NCBI GenBank assembly: GCA_030426085.1
Contig: JAUHYW010000012.1
Location: 2,425 to 66,424 of the forward strand
DNA from: a bacterium
GTDB lineage: Bacteria > Myxococcota_A > Bradymonadia > UBA7976 > UBA1532
Direction: 5' to 3'
Length of the DNA stretch: 64,000 bases
Of this stretch, positions 7,202 through 18,536 are shown piece after piece (within the stretch, counting starts at the first letter, position 1; each line of letters begins with the position of its first letter). The position numbers and the translations under genes were made by a program. The notes below the pieces were generated by a model. That model was not told where the DNA came from and searched no databases. It worked only from the letters and a program-made list of their open reading frames with translations.

Positions 7202-8731
7202 TCAACCCCGGCCGACCCACGCCGACAGCCCGCCCGCCCGGCGGGCGGTGCCCAGCGCCCGGATCACGACGATCAGCGGCAGCACCATCACCGCCAGCTC
7301 GTGCAGCGGCGTCACCCACGGCGGGTGCAGCACCAGCGCCGCCAGCGCGCCCAGCGCCAGGAGGAAGGCCGGCCACAGCGCGGGCAGGATCAGGAACACC
7401 ACCATCCCGTTCATCGCCGTCACCAGCACCGCGTCGAACGCCTGGATGATCGGCGGGCCGACCCCGTAGACCAGCCCCACCACCGGCATCATCACCTTGG
7501 CCGGCATCATCACCAGCAGCCACAGCGCCGCCCGGCGGTGCAGCTCCGAGGCCCGCAGCACGCGGTGGAACGGCAGCAGGCAGGCCAGCAGGAACGCGCT
7601 GATCCACAGCTCGGAGACCACCAGATCGACCGCGGTGAGCGTCGCCTCCTCCGACCGCCGGACGAAGAGCGCCACCGCGATGACCACCCCGAACAGGCCG
7701 ATGACCGCCAGCCGGGCCCGCCAGCCGATCAGCTCGTCGTCCGACACCCGGGCCTCGAGCGCCGCGATGAGGGCCTCCATCGACCCGAAGCGCCGCGCCG
7801 GATCGGGCGCCAGCCCCCGCAGCACCACCTCGAGCAGCGCCCCGGGCACCGCGACGTCCGCCGGCGGGGGCAGCACCGCGCCCCGGGTGACCGCCAGCTT
7901 GAGCCCGATGAGCGAGTCCCGGGGGAACGGCGCCTGCCCGCACAGCGCCTCGTAGAACGCCACCGAGAACGCGAACTGGTCCGAGCGGGCGGTCGGCGGC
8001 TGGCGGGCCATCAGCTCGGGGGCCATGTAGGCCGGGGTGCCCATGACGTGCCCGGTGCGGGTGAGCCGGTCGACCAGCAGCCGGTCGGAGCGGGACATGT
8101 CGTCGCTGTCGGTGAAGCGGGCGTCCTGCCGCCGGGCCCGGGCGAGCAGCGCGTCGTCGTCCGCCGCGTCGTCGGCGTCGTCCGCGAGCGGGGGCGCGTC
8201 CACCGCCCGGGCGAGGCCGAAGTCGATGATGCGCGGCCGCCCGTCGCCGTCGACGAGCACGTTGTCCGGCTTGAAGTCCCGGTGCACCAGCCCCGCCGCG
8301 TGGGCCGCCGCCAGCCCCCGGGCCACCTCGCCGTACATCCGGGCCGTCTCGCGCCACGGCCGCGGCTCGGCCTGCCAGGCGCCGAGGGTCGGCCCGTCGA
8401 CGAACTCCATCGCGATGAACAGCCGCCCGTCGTGCTGCCCGACCTCGAAGATCTGGACCACGTTGGGGTGGTTCACCCGGGCCATCGCCAGGGCCTCCCG
8501 CCGGATGCGCTCCTGCTGGCGACCGGCGGTCGAGCTGCGCAGCACCTTCAGCGCCACCCGACGGTCGAGGGCCGGGTCGTAGGCCGCGTACACCGTGCCC
8601 ATCGCCCCCGCGCCGGCCTGCCCGATGAGCACGAAGCGGCCGAAGCGCGGCGCTTGCTCGGGCTCGTCGGTGGAGAGCGGGATGGGGGCGGACACGGCGG
8701 ACTCCGGCGTGATCGGGGGCCGGTCCAGCAT
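7202..8731 (-). CDS. Ser/Thr protein kinase with a C-terminal multi-pass membrane domain
   Basis: 509 aa. Kinase subdomains are present (GAMGTVYAAYD...ALKVL, HRDFKPDNVLV, DFGLAR, APE). The C-terminal approximately 180 aa hold several hydrophobic helices. Confidence 0.8.
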   Translation of the reverse strand: MLDRPPITPESAVSAPIPLSTDEPEQAPRFGRFVLIGQAGAGAMGTVYAAYDPALDRRVALKVLRSSTAGRQQERIRREALAMARVNHPNVVQIFEVGQHDGRLFIAMEFVDGPTLGAWQAEPRPWRETARMYGEVARGLAAAHAAGLVHRDFKPDNVLVDGDGRPRIIDFGLARAVDAPPLADDADDAADDDALLARARRQDARFTDSDDMSRSDRLLVDRLTRTGHVMGTPAYMAPELMARQPPTARSDQFAFSVAFYEALCGQAPFPRDSLIGLKLAVTRGAVLPPPADVAVPGALLEVVLRGLAPDPARRFGSMEALIAALEARVSDDELIGWRARLAVIGLFGVVIAVALFVRRSEEATLTAVDLVVSELWISAFLLACLLPFHRVLRASELHRRAALWLLVMMPAKVMMPVVGLVYGVGPPIIQAFDAVLVTAMNGMVVFLILPALWPAFLLALGALAALVLHPPWVTPLHELAVMVLPLIVVIRALGTARRAGGLSAWVGRG

Positions 8732-9446: not shown

Positions 9447-10685
9447 GTGGATCCCGACGCCTTCGCCCGGGTCAAGGCCGCCTTCCTCGCCGTGCGCGAC
9501 CTGCCCCGGGCCGAGCAGGGCCCGGCGATCGACGCCGCCTTCGACGACCCCGCGCTGCGGGCCGAGGTGCGCGAGCTGCTGGGCCACGACGACGACGAGG
9601 CCCCGTTCATCCGCCCGCCGGAGGGCGTCTCCCGCCCGCCGCTGCCGGTCGACCCCGCCCCGCCGCTCGTCGGCGAGACCCTCGACGGCCGGTTCGACGT
9701 CGAGACCGCCGTCGCCGAGGGCGGGTTCGGCTGGGTCTACCGGGGGCGCGACCGGCAGACCGGCGAGCCGATCGCGATCAAGCTGTTCAAGCCCATCGAC
9801 GACCCCGGGCTGCGCAGCGAGGTCGAGGCCGCGTTCGACCGCGAGGGCCGGGTGCTCGAGTCGCTCGCCCCCCGCTCGGCGCACATCGTCGCCTACCGGG
9901 ACATCGGCACCTGGGTCGACCCCGACGGCGCCCGCCGCTCGTTCATCGTCATGGAGTGGCTCGACGGGGTGACCCTCGCCGAGCACGTCAACGAGACCCT
10001 GGGCGAGGGCCCGCTGCCCCTGCGGGTGGTGCACGAGCTGCTGACCCCCATCGCCGACGCGCTGGCCATCGCCCACCGCCACGGGGTCGCCCACCGGGAC
10101 ATCAAGCCGAGCAACATCCTCGTCACCCGCACCGCCGACGGCGACGCGCTGCTCAAGCTCGTCGACTTCGGGGCCGCCAAGCGGGCCGCCGACCGGGCCC
10201 GGGGCTTCCAGAGCACCGGCGGCGAGATCGGGATGGTGACCTTCGACTACTCGGCCCCCGAGCAGGTCAACAAGGCCTACGGCTCGACGGGGCCGTGGTC
10301 CGACGTCTTCTCGCTGGCGGTGCTCGTCGTCGAGATGGTCGCCGGCCGCCACCCGTGGCGCCACCTCGACCTGCTCGCGGCGATGGATCTGGCCACCAGC
10401 CGCGAGGCCCGCCCGACCCCCCGCGCGCTGGGCGTCGAGCTCGCCGACCCCGCCGTCGCCGACGCGGTCGACGCGGTCTTCACCCGGGCGCTGGCGGTCG
10501 AGCCCGAGCGCCGTCAGCCGGACGTGGCCCGGCTCTGGGCCGAGCTGGGCGCGGCGCTCGACGGCCGGGCGCGGGACGCGCCGCCCGGTTCGGATCAGAG
10601 CAGCGCGACCGGTGGCATCTCGCTCATGTGGTATGCCATCCCGCTGGGTCTGATCGCGGCGCTCGCGTGGTGGCTGAGCCGGTGA
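9447..10685 (+). CDS. Ser/Thr protein kinase with C-terminal TM anchor, partner of the ECF sigma factor
   Basis: 412 aa with a GTG start. N-terminal approximately 70 aa could be an anti-sigma-like region. Kinase motifs GGFGWVYRGRD...AIKLF, HRDIKPSNILV, DFGAAK and SAPE, plus a C-terminal TM helix (WYAIPLGLIAALAWWL). Confidence 0.8.
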   Translation: MDPDAFARVKAAFLAVRDLPRAEQGPAIDAAFDDPALRAEVRELLGHDDDEAPFIRPPEGVSRPPLPVDPAPPLVGETLDGRFDVETAVAEGGFGWVYRGRDRQTGEPIAIKLFKPIDDPGLRSEVEAAFDREGRVLESLAPRSAHIVAYRDIGTWVDPDGARRSFIVMEWLDGVTLAEHVNETLGEGPLPLRVVHELLTPIADALAIAHRHGVAHRDIKPSNILVTRTADGDALLKLVDFGAAKRAADRARGFQSTGGEIGMVTFDYSAPEQVNKAYGSTGPWSDVFSLAVLVVEMVAGRHPWRHLDLLAAMDLATSREARPTPRALGVELADPAVADAVDAVFTRALAVEPERRQPDVARLWAELGAALDGRARDAPPGSDQSSATGGISLMWYAIPLGLIAALAWWLSR

Positions 10686-10695
10686 CTGCCCCTGA

Positions 10696-11913
10696 CTATC
10701 CCAGGTCGACCCGGACGTGCTCGATGATGTCCCGCAGCGCCTGCCGCACCACCGCGGTCTCGGGGTGCCTCACGATGACATAGCCCTCGCCCTCGTAGCT
10801 GCCGGTGGGGAACATGCCCACCCGGGGCATCTGCACCTCGACGACGAGCCCCGCCACCCGCTGCTGGGCCGCCTCGAGCCCGCGCACCGCCTTCACCCGG
10901 CCCCGCCCCTGACCCCGCAGGAAGGCCGCGCCCACCGCGTAGGTCCGGGGCGGCGGCTCGAAGGCGTCGTGCACCATCAGCCGGGCCCACTTCTGGTAGA
11001 AGTCCACCTCGCCGGCGAACGACATCAGCCGCATGATCTGGGCCCCCGGCGGGCGGGCGGCGATCTCGCTGATGGCCAGGGAGCCATCCGGCCGGCGGAA
11101 CCACTCCATGTGGCTCAGCCCGGTGCCCTGCCCCAGCGCCTTCAGCGCGGCGAAGCCCGAGCGGCGCACGTCGTCGAAGGCCGGGTCGTCCACCTCGCGG
11201 GGCAGGCACACCGTCCACTGGATCCAGGGGTTCTCCACCACCCGGATGGGCTGGGGGTCGTACATCGTCAGCGAGTGCCACACCGGCTCGCCGCCGACGC
11301 TGATGACCTCGAACGACCGCTCGAGCCCCTGCACGAACTCCTCGCACAGCACCGGCCGCCCCCCGCCGAGGCCGCCGGCCACCACCCGCTTCAGGGTCTC
11401 GATGTCATCCGCTCGATGGGTCGCCACCGAGCCGGCCCCGTCGGGCGGCTTGACGATCATCGGCAGCCCCACCTGCTCGGCGAAGGCCACCGCCGCCGCC
11501 ACCGACGACACCAGCGCGTGGCGGGCGCAGGGCAGCCCCGCGGCGCGCAGCGCGTCCTTCATGCGCGACTTGTCCCGGAAGTTGCGGGCCGCCGCCGCGC
11601 CCATGCCGGGGATGCCGAGCGCGTCGCGCACCTCGCCGAGCGGCACCTGGAGCTGCTCGAACATGCCCAGCAGCCGGTGGCATCCGCCGAGCTGCCCGGC
11701 CAGCCACCGGGTCCCATCGGCGATCTGCTGGGGGTCCATGCCGTCGGCGATGCCATAGTGGGCCGCGATGTGGGGCCGCAGGTCGGCCGGGATGGCTTCG
11801 GCGGGGCTCGCGGTGACCAGCCCCAGCTTCACCCCGGGCAGCGCGGCGGCGGCCCGGATGAAGCGCAGCGTATTGAACCCCAAGAACGGGGTCGCGAAGA
11901 CGACCGGTGTCAT
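10696..11913 (-). CDS. ATP-grasp ligase (L-amino-acid-ligase-like)
   Basis: ATG at 11911-11913. MTPVVFATPF...RNFRDKSRMKD...GLPMIVKPPDGAGSVATHRADD...LCEEFVQG...MEWFRRPDGSLAISEIAARPPGAQI, with typical ATP-grasp B- and C-domain motifs. Last gene of a 3-gene minus-strand operon. Confidence 0.65.
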   Translation of the reverse strand: MTPVVFATPFLGFNTLRFIRAAAALPGVKLGLVTASPAEAIPADLRPHIAAHYGIADGMDPQQIADGTRWLAGQLGGCHRLLGMFEQLQVPLGEVRDALGIPGMGAAAARNFRDKSRMKDALRAAGLPCARHALVSSVAAAVAFAEQVGLPMIVKPPDGAGSVATHRADDIETLKRVVAGGLGGGRPVLCEEFVQGLERSFEVISVGGEPVWHSLTMYDPQPIRVVENPWIQWTVCLPREVDDPAFDDVRRSGFAALKALGQGTGLSHMEWFRRPDGSLAISEIAARPPGAQIMRLMSFAGEVDFYQKWARLMVHDAFEPPPRTYAVGAAFLRGQGRGRVKAVRGLEAAQQRVAGLVVEVQMPRVGMFPTGSYEGEGYVIVRHPETAVVRQALRDIIEHVRVDLG

Positions 11914-11957
11914 GGCGTTGGCTCCGAATGAAGGGGGTCGGGCGTGCGCTGAGAGGC

Positions 11958-12695
11958 TCAGCGGGTCAGCGTGTCGAGGTATTGGGGCAGCATCGCCCGC
12001 CAGGTGACCCAGTCGTGGTCCCACTCGGGGCCCCAGTCGTCCACCCGGTTGGGCACGCCCCGGCCGCCGAGCGCGCGGGCCACCTGCCAGCTCTCGCCGG
12101 GGGCCTCCCACTTGCCCGAGCCGGTGGCCAGCAGCACGAAGCGCCGCCGCAAGAGCGCGAGCTGCCGGCTGTCTTCCTTCAGCTCGGGCACGAAGTGCAG
12201 CGGCGACGAGACGTGGAAGTCGAAGGTGTGCTCCCCGCCCATCCACCGGGTCAGGTCGTAGGTGCCCGACATGCACACCGCCGCCCGGAAGGCATCCGGG
12301 TGGCGGCACAGCATCGACAGCGCGTTGAACGCGCCGATGCTCGCCCCGGCGGTGACGATCTCGACGTCGCCCTGGCGGCAGTCGGTGCGGATGGCCGGCA
12401 CCAGCTCGTGGTAGACGAAGGCGTCAAACATGCTCTGCATCCACGCCCGGTGCCCGCCGCCGTGCCCGTCGCCGATCCAGTAGCGCCCCGAGACGCTGTC
12501 GACGCTGTAGATGCGCACCCGGCCGGCCTCGATCAGCGGGGCGAGCACCTTCAGCATCAGGAAGCGCTCGCACTCCTCGAAGTCGCCCCCCGCGGTGGGG
12601 AACAGCAGCACCGGCTGCCCGGCGTGGCCCCAGCGGGCCACGTTCACCACCTGCTTCACCCGCTCCGAGTACCAGCGGTCGACGAGTTTGTTCAC
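11958..12695 (-). CDS. Putative esterase (esterase D / enterochelin-esterase-like alpha/beta hydrolase)
   Basis: About 245 aa with a GTG start overlapping the upstream stop as GTGA. Nucleophile elbow GASIG; motifs such as LFPTAGGDFEE...YSVDSV...HGGGH; C-terminal His region. Confidence 0.6.
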   Translation of the reverse strand: MNKLVDRWYSERVKQVVNVARWGHAGQPVLLFPTAGGDFEECERFLMLKVLAPLIEAGRVRIYSVDSVSGRYWIGDGHGGGHRAWMQSMFDAFVYHELVPAIRTDCRQGDVEIVTAGASIGAFNALSMLCRHPDAFRAAVCMSGTYDLTRWMGGEHTFDFHVSSPLHFVPELKEDSRQLALLRRRFVLLATGSGKWEAPGESWQVARALGGRGVPNRVDDWGPEWDHDWVTWRAMLPQYLDTLTR

Positions 12696-14008
12696 GCCAC
12701 GTCCCCCGGCCCGAAGGCGCCGGGGGGGTCGCTCTCGGCAATGCTCGTCGACGGGGTGCGCCGCAGGCGGTCCTCTTCGGTCTTGCCCCAGAAGCGGATG
12801 AGCCCCCAGAAGTGCTCGGTGAACCGCTCCACCTCGTGGGCCGGGAACAGCGCCTCGACCTTCTGCCGCACCAGCGCCTTGCAGGTGTCGCTGGTGAAAA
12901 AGGCCAGGGCCACCTCGTCGAGGTGGCTCAGGTGGGTCTGGCAGAACTCGGTGAAGGCGTCGGCCTTCAGCCGCTCGCGGGTGATGTCGGCGTAGGCCGC
13001 CAGCCGCTCGCGGTAGGGCAGGTCGCGCTTCGCCACCTCGAAGTACGGCCGCCAGTCGAGCGTGGGCGGGTTGACGTGCCCGCTCGCCGCGCAGAACAGC
13101 GACCAGCGCACCATCTTCTTGACCATGCTGGGCCAGTGATAGTGCAGCGAGGTCACCTGGAAGTCGGGGCAGGCGTTGGCGAAGTCGATCGGGTGGAATA
13201 CACCCTCGCGGCGCAGGCTCTCGCAGGAGTTGAACTCCCAGCCGAAGAAGCCATTGATCGTCAGCATCTGGTCGGTCAGCAGCGACCACTCGTCGCCGTC
13301 GACGAAGAAGAAGTCGACCTTGTAGCGATCGTGCAGCGCCGCGCCGGGGTCGTAGCGCACGATCTCGACCTGGGGGCCGACGCCGATGGTGCGCACGAAG
13401 AGGTCGAACGGCTCGATGGCTTCCTGCAGGTGCATCACCCGCCGGCCGGACTGCTCGTAGGCCGCCTTGAGCTCGGCCTCGTTCTGGATGCGGGTCACCC
13501 CGACCCAGGCCCCGCCGTCGTAGGGCTTCATGAACAGCGGGTAGCCCAGCTTGCGCCCCACCTCGCCGAGGTCGAACAGCCGGGCGTAGCGGTCGAGGGT
13601 GGGGCCGACGTCGGGGGTGGCCACCGCGTCGTGCTCCTTGGGCGGGGCCATCCAGGTGCGGGGCACCGGCAGCCCGAGCTTCATCATGGCCGCGTAGCTG
13701 GTCTGCTTCTCCATCGACTGCACGGCCCACGGGTTGTTGAGCACATGCAGGCCGTCCATGATCACGGCCTTCTTGATCCACTCGCGGCTGGTGTGGAACC
13801 AGTGCGTCAGCCGGTCGAGCACCACGGCGTAGCTGCACGGCTGCTGCAAGTCGTAGGGCTCGACGGTGACCCGCTCGACGGCGAAGTCGACGGTCTGCCC
13901 GCCCAGCTCGCACTCCAGGTTCAGCCCGCGCACGATGGCCTCGAAGGCCCCGGGCCAGCAGATGTCGGCCCCCAGCGAGAGGCCGATCTTCTTGGTGACG
14001 CGACTCAT
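12692..14008 (-). CDS. ATP-grasp domain protein, 438 aa. First gene of the operon.
   Basis: ATG with a GGGAGAA RBS. Central LGYPLFMKPYDGGAWVGVTRIQNEAELKAAY is a classic ATP-grasp K-x-GS/GxG segment. Long N- and C-terminal extensions have no recognisable family. Confidence 0.55.
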   Translation of the reverse strand: MSRVTKKIGLSLGADICWPGAFEAIVRGLNLECELGGQTVDFAVERVTVEPYDLQQPCSYAVVLDRLTHWFHTSREWIKKAVIMDGLHVLNNPWAVQSMEKQTSYAAMMKLGLPVPRTWMAPPKEHDAVATPDVGPTLDRYARLFDLGEVGRKLGYPLFMKPYDGGAWVGVTRIQNEAELKAAYEQSGRRVMHLQEAIEPFDLFVRTIGVGPQVEIVRYDPGAALHDRYKVDFFFVDGDEWSLLTDQMLTINGFFGWEFNSCESLRREGVFHPIDFANACPDFQVTSLHYHWPSMVKKMVRWSLFCAASGHVNPPTLDWRPYFEVAKRDLPYRERLAAYADITRERLKADAFTEFCQTHLSHLDEVALAFFTSDTCKALVRQKVEALFPAHEVERFTEHFWGLIRFWGKTEEDRLRRTPSTSIAESDPPGAFGPGDVA

Positions 14009-14534
14009 CGGGTTCTCCCCCCACCGTCAGACGACGGCGATGCGCGCGCCCTATACGCCGGTGGGGTCGGGCGCGCAAGAGAATCGAGGGTCGCGTAGTG
14101 GGTTATTTTGATTTGGCCCCGTCCCTGGCCGTCAAGCCGCTGACGACACAGCCCCCTGTAGCAGCCGATAGATCGTCGTCCTCCCTGGCGTGAGCCTCCC
14201 GTCTCGCAGCCGTGATCTCGGCCGCTCGTCCTGCTCTGGCTCTGTCTGCGTATCCGAGTCCGAGATGCCGTGAGGATACCCCCGGCATGAATCGTCGGAA
14301 TACCTCGGCGGGTCAAGTGCGGCACCGCACTGCATACAGTACGATTTCGTTTCGAGTACGCCGCTCCGGTCGCCATGGTCGAGTTCGACCCGGCGGGGGA
14401 CCCCGAGGAAAGAGCCACTGAAGCCGGGATCGTCGGGCTGCGGAGCGGGCACCGCGCGGCCGGCGGACACGTTTTCTTCGCGATTCATGCGAAATTTGTG
14501 CATATTCGGCAATGAAACTGCATGAGGGGCGCGC

Positions 14535-15848
14535 ATGCTGCTCGAATTTCGGGTCGCCAACTTTCGGTCGTTCGCCGAGGAACAGGTTTTCTCGTTCGTG
14601 GCCGACAAGGACGACACGCACCTGGAGAACACCATGGAGTGTGAGCAGTCGCCCACTGGACGGGTGACTCGGCTTGCGGTGCTATACGGACCCAACGGCG
14701 GCGGAAAGAGCGCGCTGGTGCGGGCGATTGCCGCGATGCAGGGCATGGTCGTCAACTCCGCGCGGTGGCAGGAGGGCGATCGGCTGATGAGCCTCGAGCC
14801 GTTCAAGTTGGACGCTGCGCTCGCGCATGCGCCGTGCCGGTTTGAAGCGACGTTCGTGGCTGATTGGGCCGACCCCGAAGACCCAGAGACCGTCCGGCCT
14901 GTCCGCTACCAGTACGGCTTTTCGGCGGATGTCGAGCGCGTTGACGAGGAGTGGCTGCTGGCCTACCCCCACGGTCAGCCCCAGACTTGGTTCGAGCGCG
15001 ACCCGGACGGGTTCGACTTCGGTCGGCATTTGCGGGGCGAGAAGAAGCGGATCGCCGATGCGACGCGCAGCAACGCGCTCTTCTTGTCGGTGGCGGCGCA
15101 GCAGAACCAACAGCATCTCCTACCCGTCTTTCGTTGGTTGCGGACCCACCTCATGGCCATCGGTGTCGCCGGGGAGCAAGAACTCGGTGACCCGGTGATT
15201 CGGCGGAGGCCGCTCGCTTCGGCTCGCACCAACGTAGCCCTTGATAAGGGTCACGACGAAGCCAGGAAGTACATCGTCGACTTTCTGCGAGAGGCGGATG
15301 TCGGCATCGATGACATCCGCCTGGAACGCAGCCGCTTCGACGCCGCGTCGCTGCCCCCGGGGTTCCCACCTGAGCTGAAGGCGCTGGTGGTGGAGCAGCA
15401 AGAAGAGAGGGAGATGGTCGAGGTCCGCACTGTGCACCGGGGTCGCCATGGTGAGCCCGTCGAGTGGAATCTGTCCGACGAGTCCGAGGGCACCCAGAAC
15501 CTGTATTGCCTGCTGGGTCCCTGGCTGGAGACGGTGTTCTTCGAACGATCTGCGTTCTTCGACGAATTGTTCAGCGATCTGCACCCGGTCCTCGCCCGAC
15601 GGCTGCTGGAGCGCTTCTGCAAGGAAGGCAGCAAGGGTCAGGTGCTGCTGACCACCCACGATACGAACCTGCTCGACTCGAATCTGCTTCGGCGCGATCA
15701 GGTCTGGTTCGTCGAGAAGAACCCCGACGGCGCCTCGCGGCTCTACTCGATGCTCGAATACCGTCCGCGCAAGGGCGAGAACTTCGAAAAGGGCTACCTC
15801 GCCGGCCGCTATGGCGCGCTGCCGTTCATCGGCGACGTGAGGTTCTGA
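14535..15848 (+). CDS. AAA_21/ABC-type ATPase, AbiLi / AriA-like (the ATPase half of a split OLD-family system)
   Basis: 437 aa. N-terminal LEFRVANFRSFAEE, the SMC/RecF-like head beta-strand, then Walker A LYGPNGGGKSALVRAI. The C-terminus has QVLLTTHDTNLLD, a Walker B/D-loop-like H-loop. GC is about 60-63%, markedly lower than the flanking genes. Confidence 0.75.
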   Translation: MLLEFRVANFRSFAEEQVFSFVADKDDTHLENTMECEQSPTGRVTRLAVLYGPNGGGKSALVRAIAAMQGMVVNSARWQEGDRLMSLEPFKLDAALAHAPCRFEATFVADWADPEDPETVRPVRYQYGFSADVERVDEEWLLAYPHGQPQTWFERDPDGFDFGRHLRGEKKRIADATRSNALFLSVAAQQNQQHLLPVFRWLRTHLMAIGVAGEQELGDPVIRRRPLASARTNVALDKGHDEARKYIVDFLREADVGIDDIRLERSRFDAASLPPGFPPELKALVVEQQEEREMVEVRTVHRGRHGEPVEWNLSDESEGTQNLYCLLGPWLETVFFERSAFFDELFSDLHPVLARRLLERFCKEGSKGQVLLTTHDTNLLDSNLLRRDQVWFVEKNPDGASRLYSMLEYRPRKGENFEKGYLAGRYGALPFIGDVRF

Positions 15849-16471
15849 TGCCTCGGGGCAGACGGGCACGCGGCAAGGGCAACCTGGGCCGCAACAAGGG
15901 CAACCGCAGCGGCCGACGCATCTTGATCGTCTGCGAGGGCAGCGAGACCGAGCCCCGCTACTTCCGGGCGCTGCGCGCCGAGCTGAAGCTGGGGGCTGTC
16001 GATATCCAGGTCGAGGGCGAGAATTGCGAGAGCGCACCGATCTCGGTCGTGGACTACGCGCTGGAGTTGAAGGCACGCGCGCGCCGCCAGGTGCCCTACG
16101 ACGCGGTGTGGTGCGTCATCGACCGGGACAACCACGAGAGCTTCGATCGGGCGATCGACAAGGCCGCCGCCCATGGCATCGCGGTGGCCGCCTCGGTCCG
16201 CCAGTTCGAGGTCTGGCTCCTGCTGCATTTCGTCTACAGCACCCGGTCGTGGCCCGACGGCGACAGCCTGCTCAAAGCCCTGGCCGAGCACCTGCCGGAC
16301 TACGCCAAGAATACGGACGTCGCCGGGACACTGCAGCTGCGGCGGCCCACGGCGATGACTCACGCCGAGCGGCTGCGGACCCACAACGCCGAGGTGCACG
16401 ACGCGCGCCACCCCAACCCGATGACCGATGTGGACCTCCTCGTCGGCTTCCTCGTCCGCCTCAAGCCCTGA
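15848..16471 (+). CDS. RloB-like Toprim-domain protein, AbiLii / AriB-like (nuclease half of the split OLD-family system)
   Basis: 207 aa. Start overlaps the upstream stop as TGATG. N-terminus RILIVCEGSETEPRYFRAL is the RloB/OLD Toprim signature (catalytic Glu in CEG). Downstream acidic residues in VWCVIDRDNH. Confidence 0.7.
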   Translation: MPRGRRARGKGNLGRNKGNRSGRRILIVCEGSETEPRYFRALRAELKLGAVDIQVEGENCESAPISVVDYALELKARARRQVPYDAVWCVIDRDNHESFDRAIDKAAAHGIAVAASVRQFEVWLLLHFVYSTRSWPDGDSLLKALAEHLPDYAKNTDVAGTLQLRRPTAMTHAERLRTHNAEVHDARHPNPMTDVDLLVGFLVRLKP

Positions 16472-16649: not shown

Positions 16650-18536
16650 TCACTCCTGAGCGAAGTCCCACTTCGAGCGATCACAGGTCGCCGCGAAGCC
16701 ATAGCGATCGCCGGCCACCGCCGTGCCCTGGGCCTCGGAGCCTTCGAGGTAGTACACGAAGTCGAGCTGGCGGTCGGGGCGCTCCATCTCGGTGGCGAAG
16801 ACCCGGGCGATCTCGTTGGCCGGCAGGGTCTTGCGGCCGGCGACGACCACCGGGGGGATGCGCAGGCCGGGGGTGCCGTGGCGGGCGCGGTAGGCCCGCC
16901 AGACCAGCTCGGTGCACACCAGCGCGTGGTCGGTGGCGAAGTCGAAGTCGAAGTCGTAGGGCCGGCCGAGCTGGCGGAAGGCGAAGTCGATGGCCCGGGC
17001 CTTGGTCCAGGCCGGCAGGCGGGGGCGCAGGGCGACGAGGTAGTCCCCGGCGGCCGACTTCAGCGTGCTCTGCACCACGCCCTCGCTGATGGCTTCGATG
17101 ATGGGCAGCGATCCGCCGGACGCCTCGGCCTTCTCCATCGCCTGCCACGCGGCCGGGTAGCGCCGCTCGATATAGGCGGTGAAGCGCTCGGCGCGGCCGG
17201 TGCGGCGCTCGATCCAGGCGGTGACGGTGGGGTCGTCGTCGAAGGCGGCGGCCAGCTCGGCCCGGGTGCCGACCCACAGCAGCGCGTGGGGCCAGAAGCC
17301 GGGCAGGCCCACGTTGCTGAGGTACCAGTTCTTGCGGGCCAGCATGACGTCGCCCGGGGCCAGCGCGCCCCGCATCTCGTCCAGCGCCTCGGGGTCGATG
17401 AGGTAGCGCCCCTTGCGCTTGACCTTGAAGTCGCCGAGGAAGGCGGCCACCCCGGCCTGCACCGGGAAGGTCCGCGCCTTGACCTCGCGCATCAGCGGGC
17501 CCAGATCGGCCCCGACGCTGGTGGCCGCCATCTCGAGGGTGCCCTTGTCGTCGAGCCGCTCCAGCCGGGCCCGCACGTCGTCCCACAGCGCGCCGTAGCC
17601 CCGGGCCCGGGCGTCGACGTCCGACCCGTGGGCCATCGCCAGCCACTGCTGATAGCGCTTGCCGGCGGTCACCCGCGCCAGATCGGTCAGGCCCAGCAGC
17701 TCTTCGCGGACCCAGGTGACCGACCCCGCGCGCAGCCCCCGGTCGCGGCGGCCGAGCTCGAGCAGCTTGACGACGTTGGGGTTGCGGTCGAGCAGGCCGA
17801 TGATGGCGGCGGTGTGCGCGTAGAGGGCCAGCTCGGCGGCGAAGGTCAGCAGGAAGCTGCGGACGTGGCGGTCCCGCTCGGGCCGGGAGAGGTCGAAGGC
17901 GAAGTAGTCTTCGTAGAACGCCCGGATCTGGTCCAGGGCGAAGGCGGTGTCGACGAAGCCGGCCCAGACGTCGATGACGAAGCGCTCCTCGTCGGCGGTG
18001 GCCACCCGGGGCGGGGCGCCGTCGGCGGGGAAGAGGTCGACCCGGCCTTCGAGCGCCCGGTGCAGGCCGGCGAGGGTCGCCGAGAGCTGGGCCACCTGCG
18101 TCCGGTCGGCCTCGAACCCGGCGTGGAACGTGTGCTTCGACATCCGGGTGAGCGGCTTGGGCGCGCCGATCCAGTGCACCGTGACCCGCACCACGCCGCC
18201 GACGAGCAGCAGCGCGGTCAGCGCGACGATGCGCCGGCGACCGACCTCCCGGCCGGCGTAGGGCCCGATGAGGAAGAGCCCGGCGATCATCGCCACGAGG
18301 GCCAGCATGCCGACCCCGATCAGGCCGCCGAGCATCTGGGGCAGCCAGCGGGTGCCGGCGTCGGCCAGCCAGTAGCCGGCGATCGAGCCGATGCCCAGCA
18401 GGATGATGGCGGCGCCGAGGCCGAACAGGATCTGACCGGCGCGGTACGAGCGGCGGGGCGCGGGGCGGGGCCGCGGTTCGGGGGCGGACACCTCGGGCGG
18501 CAGCGAGACCGGTCGGGGGCGGCGCAGGCGCTTCAT
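16650..18536 (-). CDS. Membrane protein with a C-terminal YiiX/DUF830-like permuted papain-fold domain
   Basis: 628 aa. ATG start, N-terminal Arg/Pro-rich region, then three TM helices. The C-terminal region GDVMLARKNWYLSNV...GDYLVALRP...DHALVCTELVWRAYR resembles permuted NlpC/P60-type amidases. Confidence 0.45.
   Translation of the reverse strand: MKRLRRPRPVSLPPEVSAPEPRPRPAPRRSYRAGQILFGLGAAIILLGIGSIAGYWLADAGTRWLPQMLGGLIGVGMLALVAMIAGLFLIGPYAGREVGRRRIVALTALLLVGGVVRVTVHWIGAPKPLTRMSKHTFHAGFEADRTQVAQLSATLAGLHRALEGRVDLFPADGAPPRVATADEERFVIDVWAGFVDTAFALDQIRAFYEDYFAFDLSRPERDRHVRSFLLTFAAELALYAHTAAIIGLLDRNPNVVKLLELGRRDRGLRAGSVTWVREELLGLTDLARVTAGKRYQQWLAMAHGSDVDARARGYGALWDDVRARLERLDDKGTLEMAATSVGADLGPLMREVKARTFPVQAGVAAFLGDFKVKRKGRYLIDPEALDEMRGALAPGDVMLARKNWYLSNVGLPGFWPHALLWVGTRAELAAAFDDDPTVTAWIERRTGRAERFTAYIERRYPAAWQAMEKAEASGGSLPIIEAISEGVVQSTLKSAAGDYLVALRPRLPAWTKARAIDFAFRQLGRPYDFDFDFATDHALVCTELVWRAYRARHGTPGLRIPPVVVAGRKTLPANEIARVFATEMERPDRQLDFVYYLEGSEAQGTAVAGDRYGFAATCDRSKWDFAQE

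Follow-up and report, generated by a model that had tools for sequence, protein, structure and literature searches.

An uncharacterised operon of two ATP-grasp ligases and a PF00756 hydrolase, apparently the reduced form of a gene cluster found across several bacterial phyla

The closest described systems in which ATP-grasp ligases build non-ribosomal products differ in what they join and in what accompanies them. In the cyanophycin system, ATP-dependent, ATP-grasp-based ligation by CphA, which also has an N domain and a Mur-ligase-like M domain, is paired with the S51 serine peptidase CphB, inside the cell and without an exporter. L-amino acid ligases (LALs) such as RizA, BacD/YwfE, BL00235 and TabS are associated with antibiotic clusters, RimK acts on S6 and LysX on LysW, Ddl forms D-Ala-D-Ala, and VanA, which forms D-Ala-D-Lac, illustrates that the ATP-grasp fold is able to form ester bonds. 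Glutathionylspermidine synthetase/amidase combines an ATP-dependent ligase with the hydrolase of the bond that it forms, both encoded together, and a metabolite pool is built and dismantled. Here we describe an operon on the minus strand of a 64,000-nucleotide (nt) stretch of bacterial DNA (the window, in whose numbering all positions are given), which encodes an ATP-grasp ligase (gene A), a PF00756 serine hydrolase (gene B) and a LAL-like ATP-grasp ligase (gene C). We consider it probable that this operon is an intracellular, non-ribosomal, ATP-dependent ligase-plus-hydrolase cassette, and that it represents the minimal form of a widely conserved and uncharacterised cluster.

The operon and the spacer in front of it are laid out as follows:

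Gene A, 12692–14008, minus strand: ATP-grasp protein of 438 amino acids (aa), ATG start at 14008 with GGGGAG 6 nt upstream, containing LGYPLFMKPYDGGAWVGV
Gene B, 11958–12695, minus strand: PF00756 serine hydrolase of 245 aa, GTG start, containing GASIG
Gene C, 10696–11913, minus strand: LAL-like ATP-grasp protein of 405 aa, ATG start with GGAG 8 nt upstream, containing MEWFRRPDGSLAISEIAARPPG
A/B overlap, 12692–12695, minus strand: GTGA, in which the GTG start of B overlaps the TGA stop of A, as read from the sequence
Spacer from A to the divergent AbiLi gene, 14009–14534, no strand: 526 bp, non-coding, GC 0.644

The three genes, their quoted motifs and the GTGA junction had been described in the original prediction, and all are present in the sequence. 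Gene C starts 44 nt beyond the stop of gene B, and the operon is bounded by a convergent Ser/Thr kinase gene (9447–10685, plus strand) and by the divergent AbiLi gene (14535–15848, plus strand). These gene boundaries support the conclusion that A, B and C are a single co-transcribed operon, in which the GTGA overlap indicates a predicted translational coupling of A and B. Overlap of the two genes is also seen elsewhere, in that the tblastn match to B starts before the match to A has ended, e.g., in the related loci L016, L029, L038, L056, L058 and L074. The window has a GC content of ~73% and its lists of open reading frames (ORFs) are crowded with high-GC artefacts; real genes were picked out by the GC content at codon positions 1/2/3, which was 0.64/0.43/0.97 for A, 0.68/0.48/0.98 for B and 0.74/0.49/0.97 for C. 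With third-position values of 0.97–0.98, all three genes show the strong coding signature of a 73% GC genome, and their starts are fixed, since homologues align from residue 1 and are of equal length. Two longer ORFs in the mechanical list (10696–12309 and 11958–14078) were rejected as high-GC open-frame artefacts.

Related loci were surveyed by tblastn, which gave a census of 83 loci drawn from the 80 closest genome matches; in the counts given below, the denominators are the loci with enough flanking sequence. Judged from gene content, the trio in the window is a minimal or reduced form of a conserved cluster of up to seven genes, which comprises four ATP-grasp ligases (A, C and two further LAL-like proteins, G1 and G2), two PF00756 esterases (B and the Fes-like Est378) and one S51 peptidase of the cyanophycinase/PepE-like kind. 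The three-gene arrangement had initially been taken to be peculiar to myxobacteria, and the census shows instead that the larger cluster is spread over several phyla. The neighbours of A were found at the following frequencies:

Any PF00756 esterase next to A: 62 of 71 loci
Est378 (Fes-like) next to A: 56 of 77 loci
B next to A, directly after it: 48 of 77 loci
S51-like gene next to A: 43 of 69 loci
G2 next to A: 28 of 68 loci
C next to A: 23 of 68 loci
G1 next to A: 17 of 68 loci

The fullest order is G1, G2, the S51-like gene, Est378, A and B. G1 and G2 are ~31% identical to C, which usually has G1 nearby. The A-B-C form was seen in eight loci, the window and seven others, and Acidimicrobiia typically carry Est378-A-B. 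Genes that are missing at a locus can sit elsewhere in the same genome or contig, as shown by Paraliomyxa, where the B homologue is on the same contig as A, and by Acidobacteria bacterium Mor1, where the C homologue is not near A. No other family is broadly conserved around the clusters, and the flanks of the Acidimicrobiia and A-B-C-type loci gave no further partner. In particular, no transporter or exporter, regulator, carrier protein, non-ribosomal peptide synthetase or polyketide synthase, or tailoring enzyme is conserved there, and a Mur-ligase gene is missing from the window operon and from those related loci in which the genes were inspected.

The two hydrolases that accompany A in the larger cluster were characterised by profile and motif comparison. 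Est378 is a Fes-like PF00756 esterase of 378 aa with an N-terminal β-sandwich (Enterochelin_N, up to 36 bits), and it gives sub-threshold matches to CBM_20 and CBM_48 as well as a match to the enterochelin esterase model at E 1e-28, below the cut-off. The S51-like protein exceeds the Pfam threshold in Nannocystis punicea (31 bits), and it retains the motifs W-S-A-G-A and P-H-A, which in alignment fall on the regions of the nucleophile and the histidine in peptidase E structures. Signal peptides are missing from the proteins, B among them. A paralogous A-like clade (37–38% identity) lies directly downstream of a bona fide Peptidase_S51 gene (44 bits) in L088, L089 and L091, on independent contigs; in the arrangement at L088 (6540–9230) and L091 (2–1641), the S51 gene encodes 464 aa, and its product is homologous to the S51-like protein of the cluster. 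Another A paralogue has a PF00756 esterase gene 4 kb away. Because both S51 and PF00756 neighbours thus recur in paralogous A-like clades, the partnership of A-type ligases with hydrolases is ancient. The neighbourhoods of the distant A-like relatives P0168 and P0245 were unrelated to the cluster. In L088, HEAT-repeat and Ser/Thr kinase genes surround the S51/A-like pair. At a single locus, L090 (4118–7837), a MATCAP-family (PF08014) gene is found on the opposite strand, two genes away from an A-like gene with 46% identity. The MATCAP family includes the tubulin tyrosine carboxypeptidase, and this neighbour hints at a theme of C-terminal addition and removal.

The A family is both large and strongly conserved. 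Homologues of A form >6,700 clusters at 90% identity in a large protein collection, nearly all of them unnamed or annotated as ‘ATP-grasp domain-containing protein’, and the family is compact, since only 192 representatives were found at E 1e-30 in a library clustered at 50%. In a scan of one genome per species, A was carried by at least 580 species genomes. The best 80 genome matches are 58–72% identical to the window protein, and their carriers include Nannocystis and other Myxococcota, Acidobacteriota (mainly Thermoanaerobaculia, with complete chromosomes among them), Acidimicrobiia, Eisenbacteria, Binatia and Planctomycetota. The families of B and C are similar to that of A in size and conservation. 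Apparent ligase-esterase fusions and long forms of A (P0013, P0162, P0177 and P0248) were rejected as mis-called starts or frameshifted high-GC translations; these entries would mislead a domain-fusion analysis.

The assignment of the three proteins as an ATP-grasp enzyme, an esterase and a LAL-like ATP-grasp enzyme, as first proposed from the sequence, was borne out by Pfam, PDB and Foldseek matches. In protein A, a pre-ATP-grasp domain at the N-terminus is followed by the ATP-grasp core and then by a helical C-terminal domain of ~130 aa that is specific to the family. Its sole Pfam match is Dala_Dala_lig_C (PF07478), at 24.5 bits relative to a cut-off of 24 and over 40 of 204 profile positions. 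The NCBIfam Ddl/Van models (VanG included) gave 15–25 bits against cut-offs of 243–750, and the RimK/LysX models TIGR00768 and TIGR02144 gave 21.2 bits against 143.4 and 24.4 bits against 275.6, respectively, which places A outside both groups. No GshB model was among the Pfam or NCBIfam matches at E≤0.01, and the PDB entry 7ta5, ‘glutathione synthase’, matched only at E 0.48. When A was searched against the PDB, as a single sequence or as a family profile, the Ddl and biotin carboxylase matches covered only the strand and loop that bind ATP, and the profile gave weak longer matches (~150–200 residues) to RimK and ArgX. The AlphaFold model of A (predicted local distance difference test score, pLDDT, 78; predicted template-modelling score, pTM, 0.79) matched Ddl, the ArgX-LysW complex and VanA in Foldseek at probability 1.0 and E 1e-8 to 1e-7, with low TM-scores of 0.35–0.54 owing to domain placement and a low-confidence segment.

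Alignment of the A family with the C family by hhalign (96% probability) set K161, Q195/E196, E263 and D275 of A opposite K155, E191/E192, E270 and E283 of C, which are the ATP-binding lysine, the hinge and the Mg-binding acids. In relatives of A down to 26% identity, K161, G165/G166 and Q195 are ≥90% conserved, and E263, D275 and N278 are invariant. Since these ATP- and Mg-binding residues are conserved or invariant over such a distance, A looks catalytically competent. By the predicted fold and the catalytic residues alike, A is a true ATP-grasp enzyme, yet it falls in no curated functional family. Relative to Ddl and VanA, which provide its best sequence and structure matches, the sequence similarity of A is limited to a ~40-residue ATP-binding strand and loop, and there is no cell-wall gene context; bond formation of the VanA type would fit the esterase partners. 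A shares a comparable three-domain layout with RimK and LysX/ArgX and differs from them in its unique helical C-terminal ~130 aa and in that no S6-like or LysW-like partner gene is conserved. Residues 49–94 of A (window ~13727–13864) contain many invariant residues, e.g., DRLTHW and TSREW-KK, and, to judge by the model, this segment may fold only upon binding of a partner or substrate.

Protein B matches the Pfam Esterase family (PF00756) at 38.5 bits relative to a cut-off of 22, and its AlphaFold model (pLDDT 93.6) has its best Foldseek matches among feruloyl esterases, S-formylglutathione hydrolases, CBM48-CE1 esterases, antigen 85 and Fes (E 1e-14 to 1e-9). The nucleophile Ser119, within GASIG, and the histidine H227, within DHDW, are both invariant in 26 homologues. 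Taken together, the Pfam match, the modelled fold and the Ser-His pair indicate that B is a cytoplasmic serine hydrolase of the CE1/esterase-D type. As in the CE1, esterase D and Fes group of PF00756, B has the characteristic fold, a GxSxG nucleophile and a C-terminal His motif; unlike solved members, to which it is 12–22% identical, it is short (245 aa) and cytoplasmic, and its gene is predicted to be translationally coupled to that of an ATP-grasp enzyme. Peptidase_S9 also passes its cut-off (25.1 bits against 22.6) in a match that is confined to the surroundings of the nucleophile, so that the substrate of B could be a peptide.

Protein C matches the Pfam ATP-grasp family at 33.3 bits (cut-off 27), and its match to LAL_C2 is below the threshold (19.9 against 29.4 bits). 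Among solved structures, its closest relative is the L-amino acid ligase 4wd3 (E 1e-14, residues 43–315), followed in the PDB by BacD and BL00235 (E 3e-9 to 6e-8). Among NCBIfam models, PRK02186, an ATP-grasp fused to argininosuccinate lyase, was reached at E 6.5e-24, but with 84 bits against a cut-off of 625, and the BacD equivalog with 30 bits against 850. The orthologues of C are 50–60% identical across phyla. By sequence, C is a protein of LAL-like architecture that is not an orthologue of any characterised LAL. It resembles the LALs in this architecture, in its similarity to 4wd3 and, weakly, in the C-terminal domain, whereas its context is not an antibiotic cluster, and it is conserved across phyla with two paralogues, G1 and G2, in the full cluster.

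None of A, B and C reaches the cut-off of a curated functional family, neither ligase maps confidently to primary metabolism, and the conserved context points to no characterised pathway, in agreement with the view in the original prediction that no known pathway fits. Full-text literature searching found no published description of the arrangement, although an earlier in silico mention may exist. Cyanophycin had been set aside at the outset because of the layout; this was right for family membership, but the cyanophycin-like logic of ligases together with an S51 peptidase turns out to be the closest functional analogy once the relatives are considered. Like CphA and CphB, the system here, as known from its genes, appears to use ATP-grasp-based ATP-dependent non-ribosomal ligation, pairs the ligase with an S51 serine peptidase in the full cluster and in the paralogous clade, and fits an intracellular, exporter-free, storage-type context. 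In contrast to CphA and CphB, its ligases are separate proteins of other ATP-grasp families, two PF00756 esterases are added, and the window is without an S51 gene.

A further feature of the related loci is the proximity of glycogen genes. On an Acidobacteriota chromosome (L087, identical to L077; 1–14774), the cluster is interleaved with glgP, an amylase gene, glgC and glgA. GlgA is encoded inside or beside the cluster at ~19 of the 83 loci, in Acidobacteriota, Myxococcota (Kofleriaceae) and Binatia, and in at least three arrangements. Its gene may stand between B and C, form a glgA-glgC pair downstream, or lie directly upstream in the same orientation. The last of these was found in one genome each of Kofleriaceae, Baikal Myxococcales and Binatia and is the arrangement of L061, L065 and L067, and further glycogen-linked loci are L031, L035, L036, L046, L049, L074, L079 and L080. 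For a gene that occurs about once per genome, this linkage is far above chance, with a count that is inflated by shared ancestry.

From these features, the working of the cassette can be outlined. A would activate a carboxylate as an acyl-phosphate and join it to an amine or a hydroxyl, forming the core bond of the product, and it would probably extend a carboxyl terminus, as do RimK, LysX and the cyanophycin synthetase ATP-grasp domain. A second ATP-dependent step, catalysed by C, would add another L-amino acid, and B would hydrolyse the product or its ester or thioester form, providing turnover of the compound. The product would stay in the cell. Most likely it would be a peptide or depsipeptide of small size, or else a poly(amino acid) resembling cyanophycin that serves as a reserve or stress compound. 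The build-and-dismantle logic proposed here is, by analogy, that of glutathionylspermidine synthetase/amidase; the protein families are different, the proteins here are separate rather than fused, and that enzyme was not among the Pfam or NCBIfam matches listed.

Several observations weigh against the cassette as outlined. Its substrates, its product and the type of bond formed, amide or ester, are deduced from sequence comparison and structure prediction, and the loci of the census are phylogenetically non-independent. The second metal-site motif of A is D-F-A-N and not the usual E-x-N, and residues 49–94 are the only internal part of its model with pLDDT <50. The closest structural relatives of B cleave esters and thioesters, not peptides, so that a depsipeptide or thioester fits better than a pure polyamide. 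No homologue of the S51-like gene, Est378, G1 or G2 was found in the 64-kb window, and the reduced operon may make something simpler than the full cluster does. Glycogen genes are near the operon neither in the window nor in most Myxococcota loci, and the linkage seen elsewhere could reflect direct action on an α-glucan rather than co-regulated storage.

A cyanophycin-like reserve polymer is the most attractive specific model, since the S51 partner is recurrent, export functions are missing and glycogen genes lie in the neighbourhood; we nevertheless regard it as possible but doubtful. In this model, A would polymerise an amino acid (aspartate is a candidate) by additions to the carboxyl end of the chain, giving a nitrogen or carbon reserve alongside glycogen, while C, G1 and G2 would attach side-chain residues and B, the Fes-like esterase and the S51 peptidase would depolymerise the product. 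It is favoured by the linkage of S51 genes to A-type ligases in two deeply diverged clades, by the interleaving of the cluster with glgA, glgC and glgP, by the joint presence of several ligases and several hydrolases without an exporter, carrier or precursor, and by the similarity of A, weak but of longer range, to RimK and LysX/ArgX, ligases that act by extending a carboxyl terminus. The ATP-grasp region of cyanophycin synthetase models is also matched by the families of C, G1 and G2, but far below the cut-off: against the CphA models, TIGR02068 among them, C scores 24.7–27.7 bits and G1 and G2 score 28–37 bits (25–37 bits overall), over the ATP-grasp part only, with cut-offs of 850–877. Both the Mur-ligase-like M domain and the N domain of CphA are missing, two esterases point to ester bonds, which are absent from cyanophycin, the window carries just two ligases and a single hydrolase, and nothing here shows processivity or polymerisation. 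In its broader form, the idea would be that A-type ligases, CE1/Fes-type esterases and the S51 peptidase make up an unrecognised intracellular reserve system, in which a poly(amino acid) or poly(ester-amide) is made by stand-alone ATP-grasp enzymes and co-managed with glycogen in Myxococcota, Acidobacteriota, Acidimicrobiia and other soil and sediment bacteria. We hold this to be rather unlikely; if it were true, the window would carry a minimal set of synthase, side-chain ligase and depolymerase. A small bioactive di- or tripeptide akin to bacilysin, rhizocticin or tabtoxin, assembled by the two ligases with the esterase acting in maturation or self-protection, would explain why the best characterised relatives of C are the antibiotic-pathway ligases 4wd3, BacD and BL00235, and the use of two ATP-grasp ligases one after the other is an established way of making peptides of this kind, echoed in PMC4431377. 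This alternative appears improbable to us, given that A is 58–72% identical across phyla and present in at least 580 species, that gene content varies almost only by loss of modules, that exporter, tailoring and unusual-precursor genes are not conserved, and that the neighbours are housekeeping or glycogen genes, a pattern untypical of secondary metabolite clusters.

The ligases might instead act on a macromolecule. In a reversible protein modification, for which RimK, LysX and tubulin tyrosine ligase are precedents, a specific protein would receive amino acids, attached by A at its C-terminus or at a side-chain carboxylate, and the hydrolases would take them off again. The match of the A model to the ArgX-LysW complex, the weak reach of the A profile to RimK, the MATCAP-family gene two genes from a 46%-identical A relative, and the very high conservation of A, which would suit a protein partner, all agree with such a role; yet the MATCAP link is a single locus, a small carrier or target gene is not conserved in or near the clusters, and four different ligases with CE1-type esterases are hard to fit to one protein tail, and we judge it quite improbable. 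Decoration of glycogen or another α-glucan, in which ester-linked amino acids or other acids would be placed on sugar hydroxyls by the ATP-grasp enzymes and removed by the CE1-type esterases, is in our view very improbable. Ester formation by ATP-grasp enzymes is known from VanA and the graspetide ligases, both esterases of the cluster belong to PF00756/CE1 with carbohydrate esterases, CBM48-CE1 included, among the best structural matches, the Fes-like esterase has its N-terminal β-sandwich with the CBM_20/CBM_48 similarity, and in L061, L065 and L067 the GlgA gene immediately precedes the cluster and points the same way. The CBM matches, however, are below threshold, the S51 peptidase and the LAL-like ligases indicate peptide bonds, most loci, the window included, are without a nearby glycogen gene, and we know of no aminoacylated glycogen. 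A graspetide or other ribosomally made, post-translationally modified peptide (RiPP) system, acting on a small precursor peptide encoded upstream, is effectively refuted. The 526-bp spacer does contain small ORFs, and the original prediction had pointed to one of them, at 14103–14288, as a potential substrate peptide. This ORF exists, but its GC content is flat over the codon positions (0.66/0.63/0.61), unlike the signature of genes in this genome, and the six-frame ORFs of the spacer have no counterpart upstream of A in the 83 related loci; for both reasons it is not considered a gene. A search for conserved ORFs of 25–130 aa in all clusters yielded nothing but noise of low complexity and frames that shadow known genes, so that no small ORF is kept anywhere in the clusters and the substrate-peptide idea was rejected, and neither A nor C has a significant graspetide-type match in the Pfam and NCBIfam scans.

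The favoured reading, an intracellular ligase-plus-hydrolase cassette, would bear on a family of some reach. A belongs to a large family that has no curated model or functional name and is ~60–70% identical between phyla, a degree of constraint that is unusual for an unassigned enzyme. Its esterase, S51 and ligase partners and its placement near glycogen genes suggest a common physiology, be it a modification or a compound used as a reserve or under stress, in bacteria that dominate soils, sediments and wastewater. The identity of the product would give functions to up to seven conserved ‘hypothetical’ families and could reveal a new biopolymer or metabolite built by ATP-grasp enzymes, and direct testing is possible in cultured carriers, i.e., Nannocystis punicea, N. 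pusilla and Paraliomyxa miuraensis.

The 526-bp spacer presumably holds the promoter of the operon. A sigma-70-type consensus was not seen in it, and a scan for sigma-70 promoters and intrinsic terminators was uninformative. In Rfam scans, the spacer gave no match at E≤1, and the sole match in the operon was gntR-DTE (E 0.66), which lies inside gene B and is at chance level.

Directly upstream of A and divergent from it is an AbiL-type abortive-infection pair in an island of lower GC (0.64–0.65 relative to ~0.73). AbiLi (14535–15848, plus strand) is an AAA_21 ATPase identified by PADLOC at E 1e-84, and AbiLii (15845–16471, plus strand) is RloB-like (E 3e-23). A pair with 38% and 35% identity is found near the cluster in Paraliomyxa (L001) and at no other related locus, and the adjacency to the operon looks coincidental. 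A defence-system reading of the operon, which the adjacent AbiL pair had suggested, was rejected, as PADLOC matched only the neighbouring AbiLi and AbiLii genes and none of A, B and C, and AbiL occurs in only that one other locus. On the downstream side of the operon there are two Ser/Thr protein kinase genes (7202–8731, minus strand, and 9447–10685, plus strand); kinases are also near A-type genes in L086 and L088, which is probably due to chance, given how common such genes are in Myxococcota. Beyond the AbiL pair, a gene at 16650–18536 (minus strand) encodes a 628-aa protein in which 390 N-terminal residues without assignment precede a C-terminal Peptidase_C92 domain (YaeF/YiiX permuted papain-like amidase, E 6e-10).

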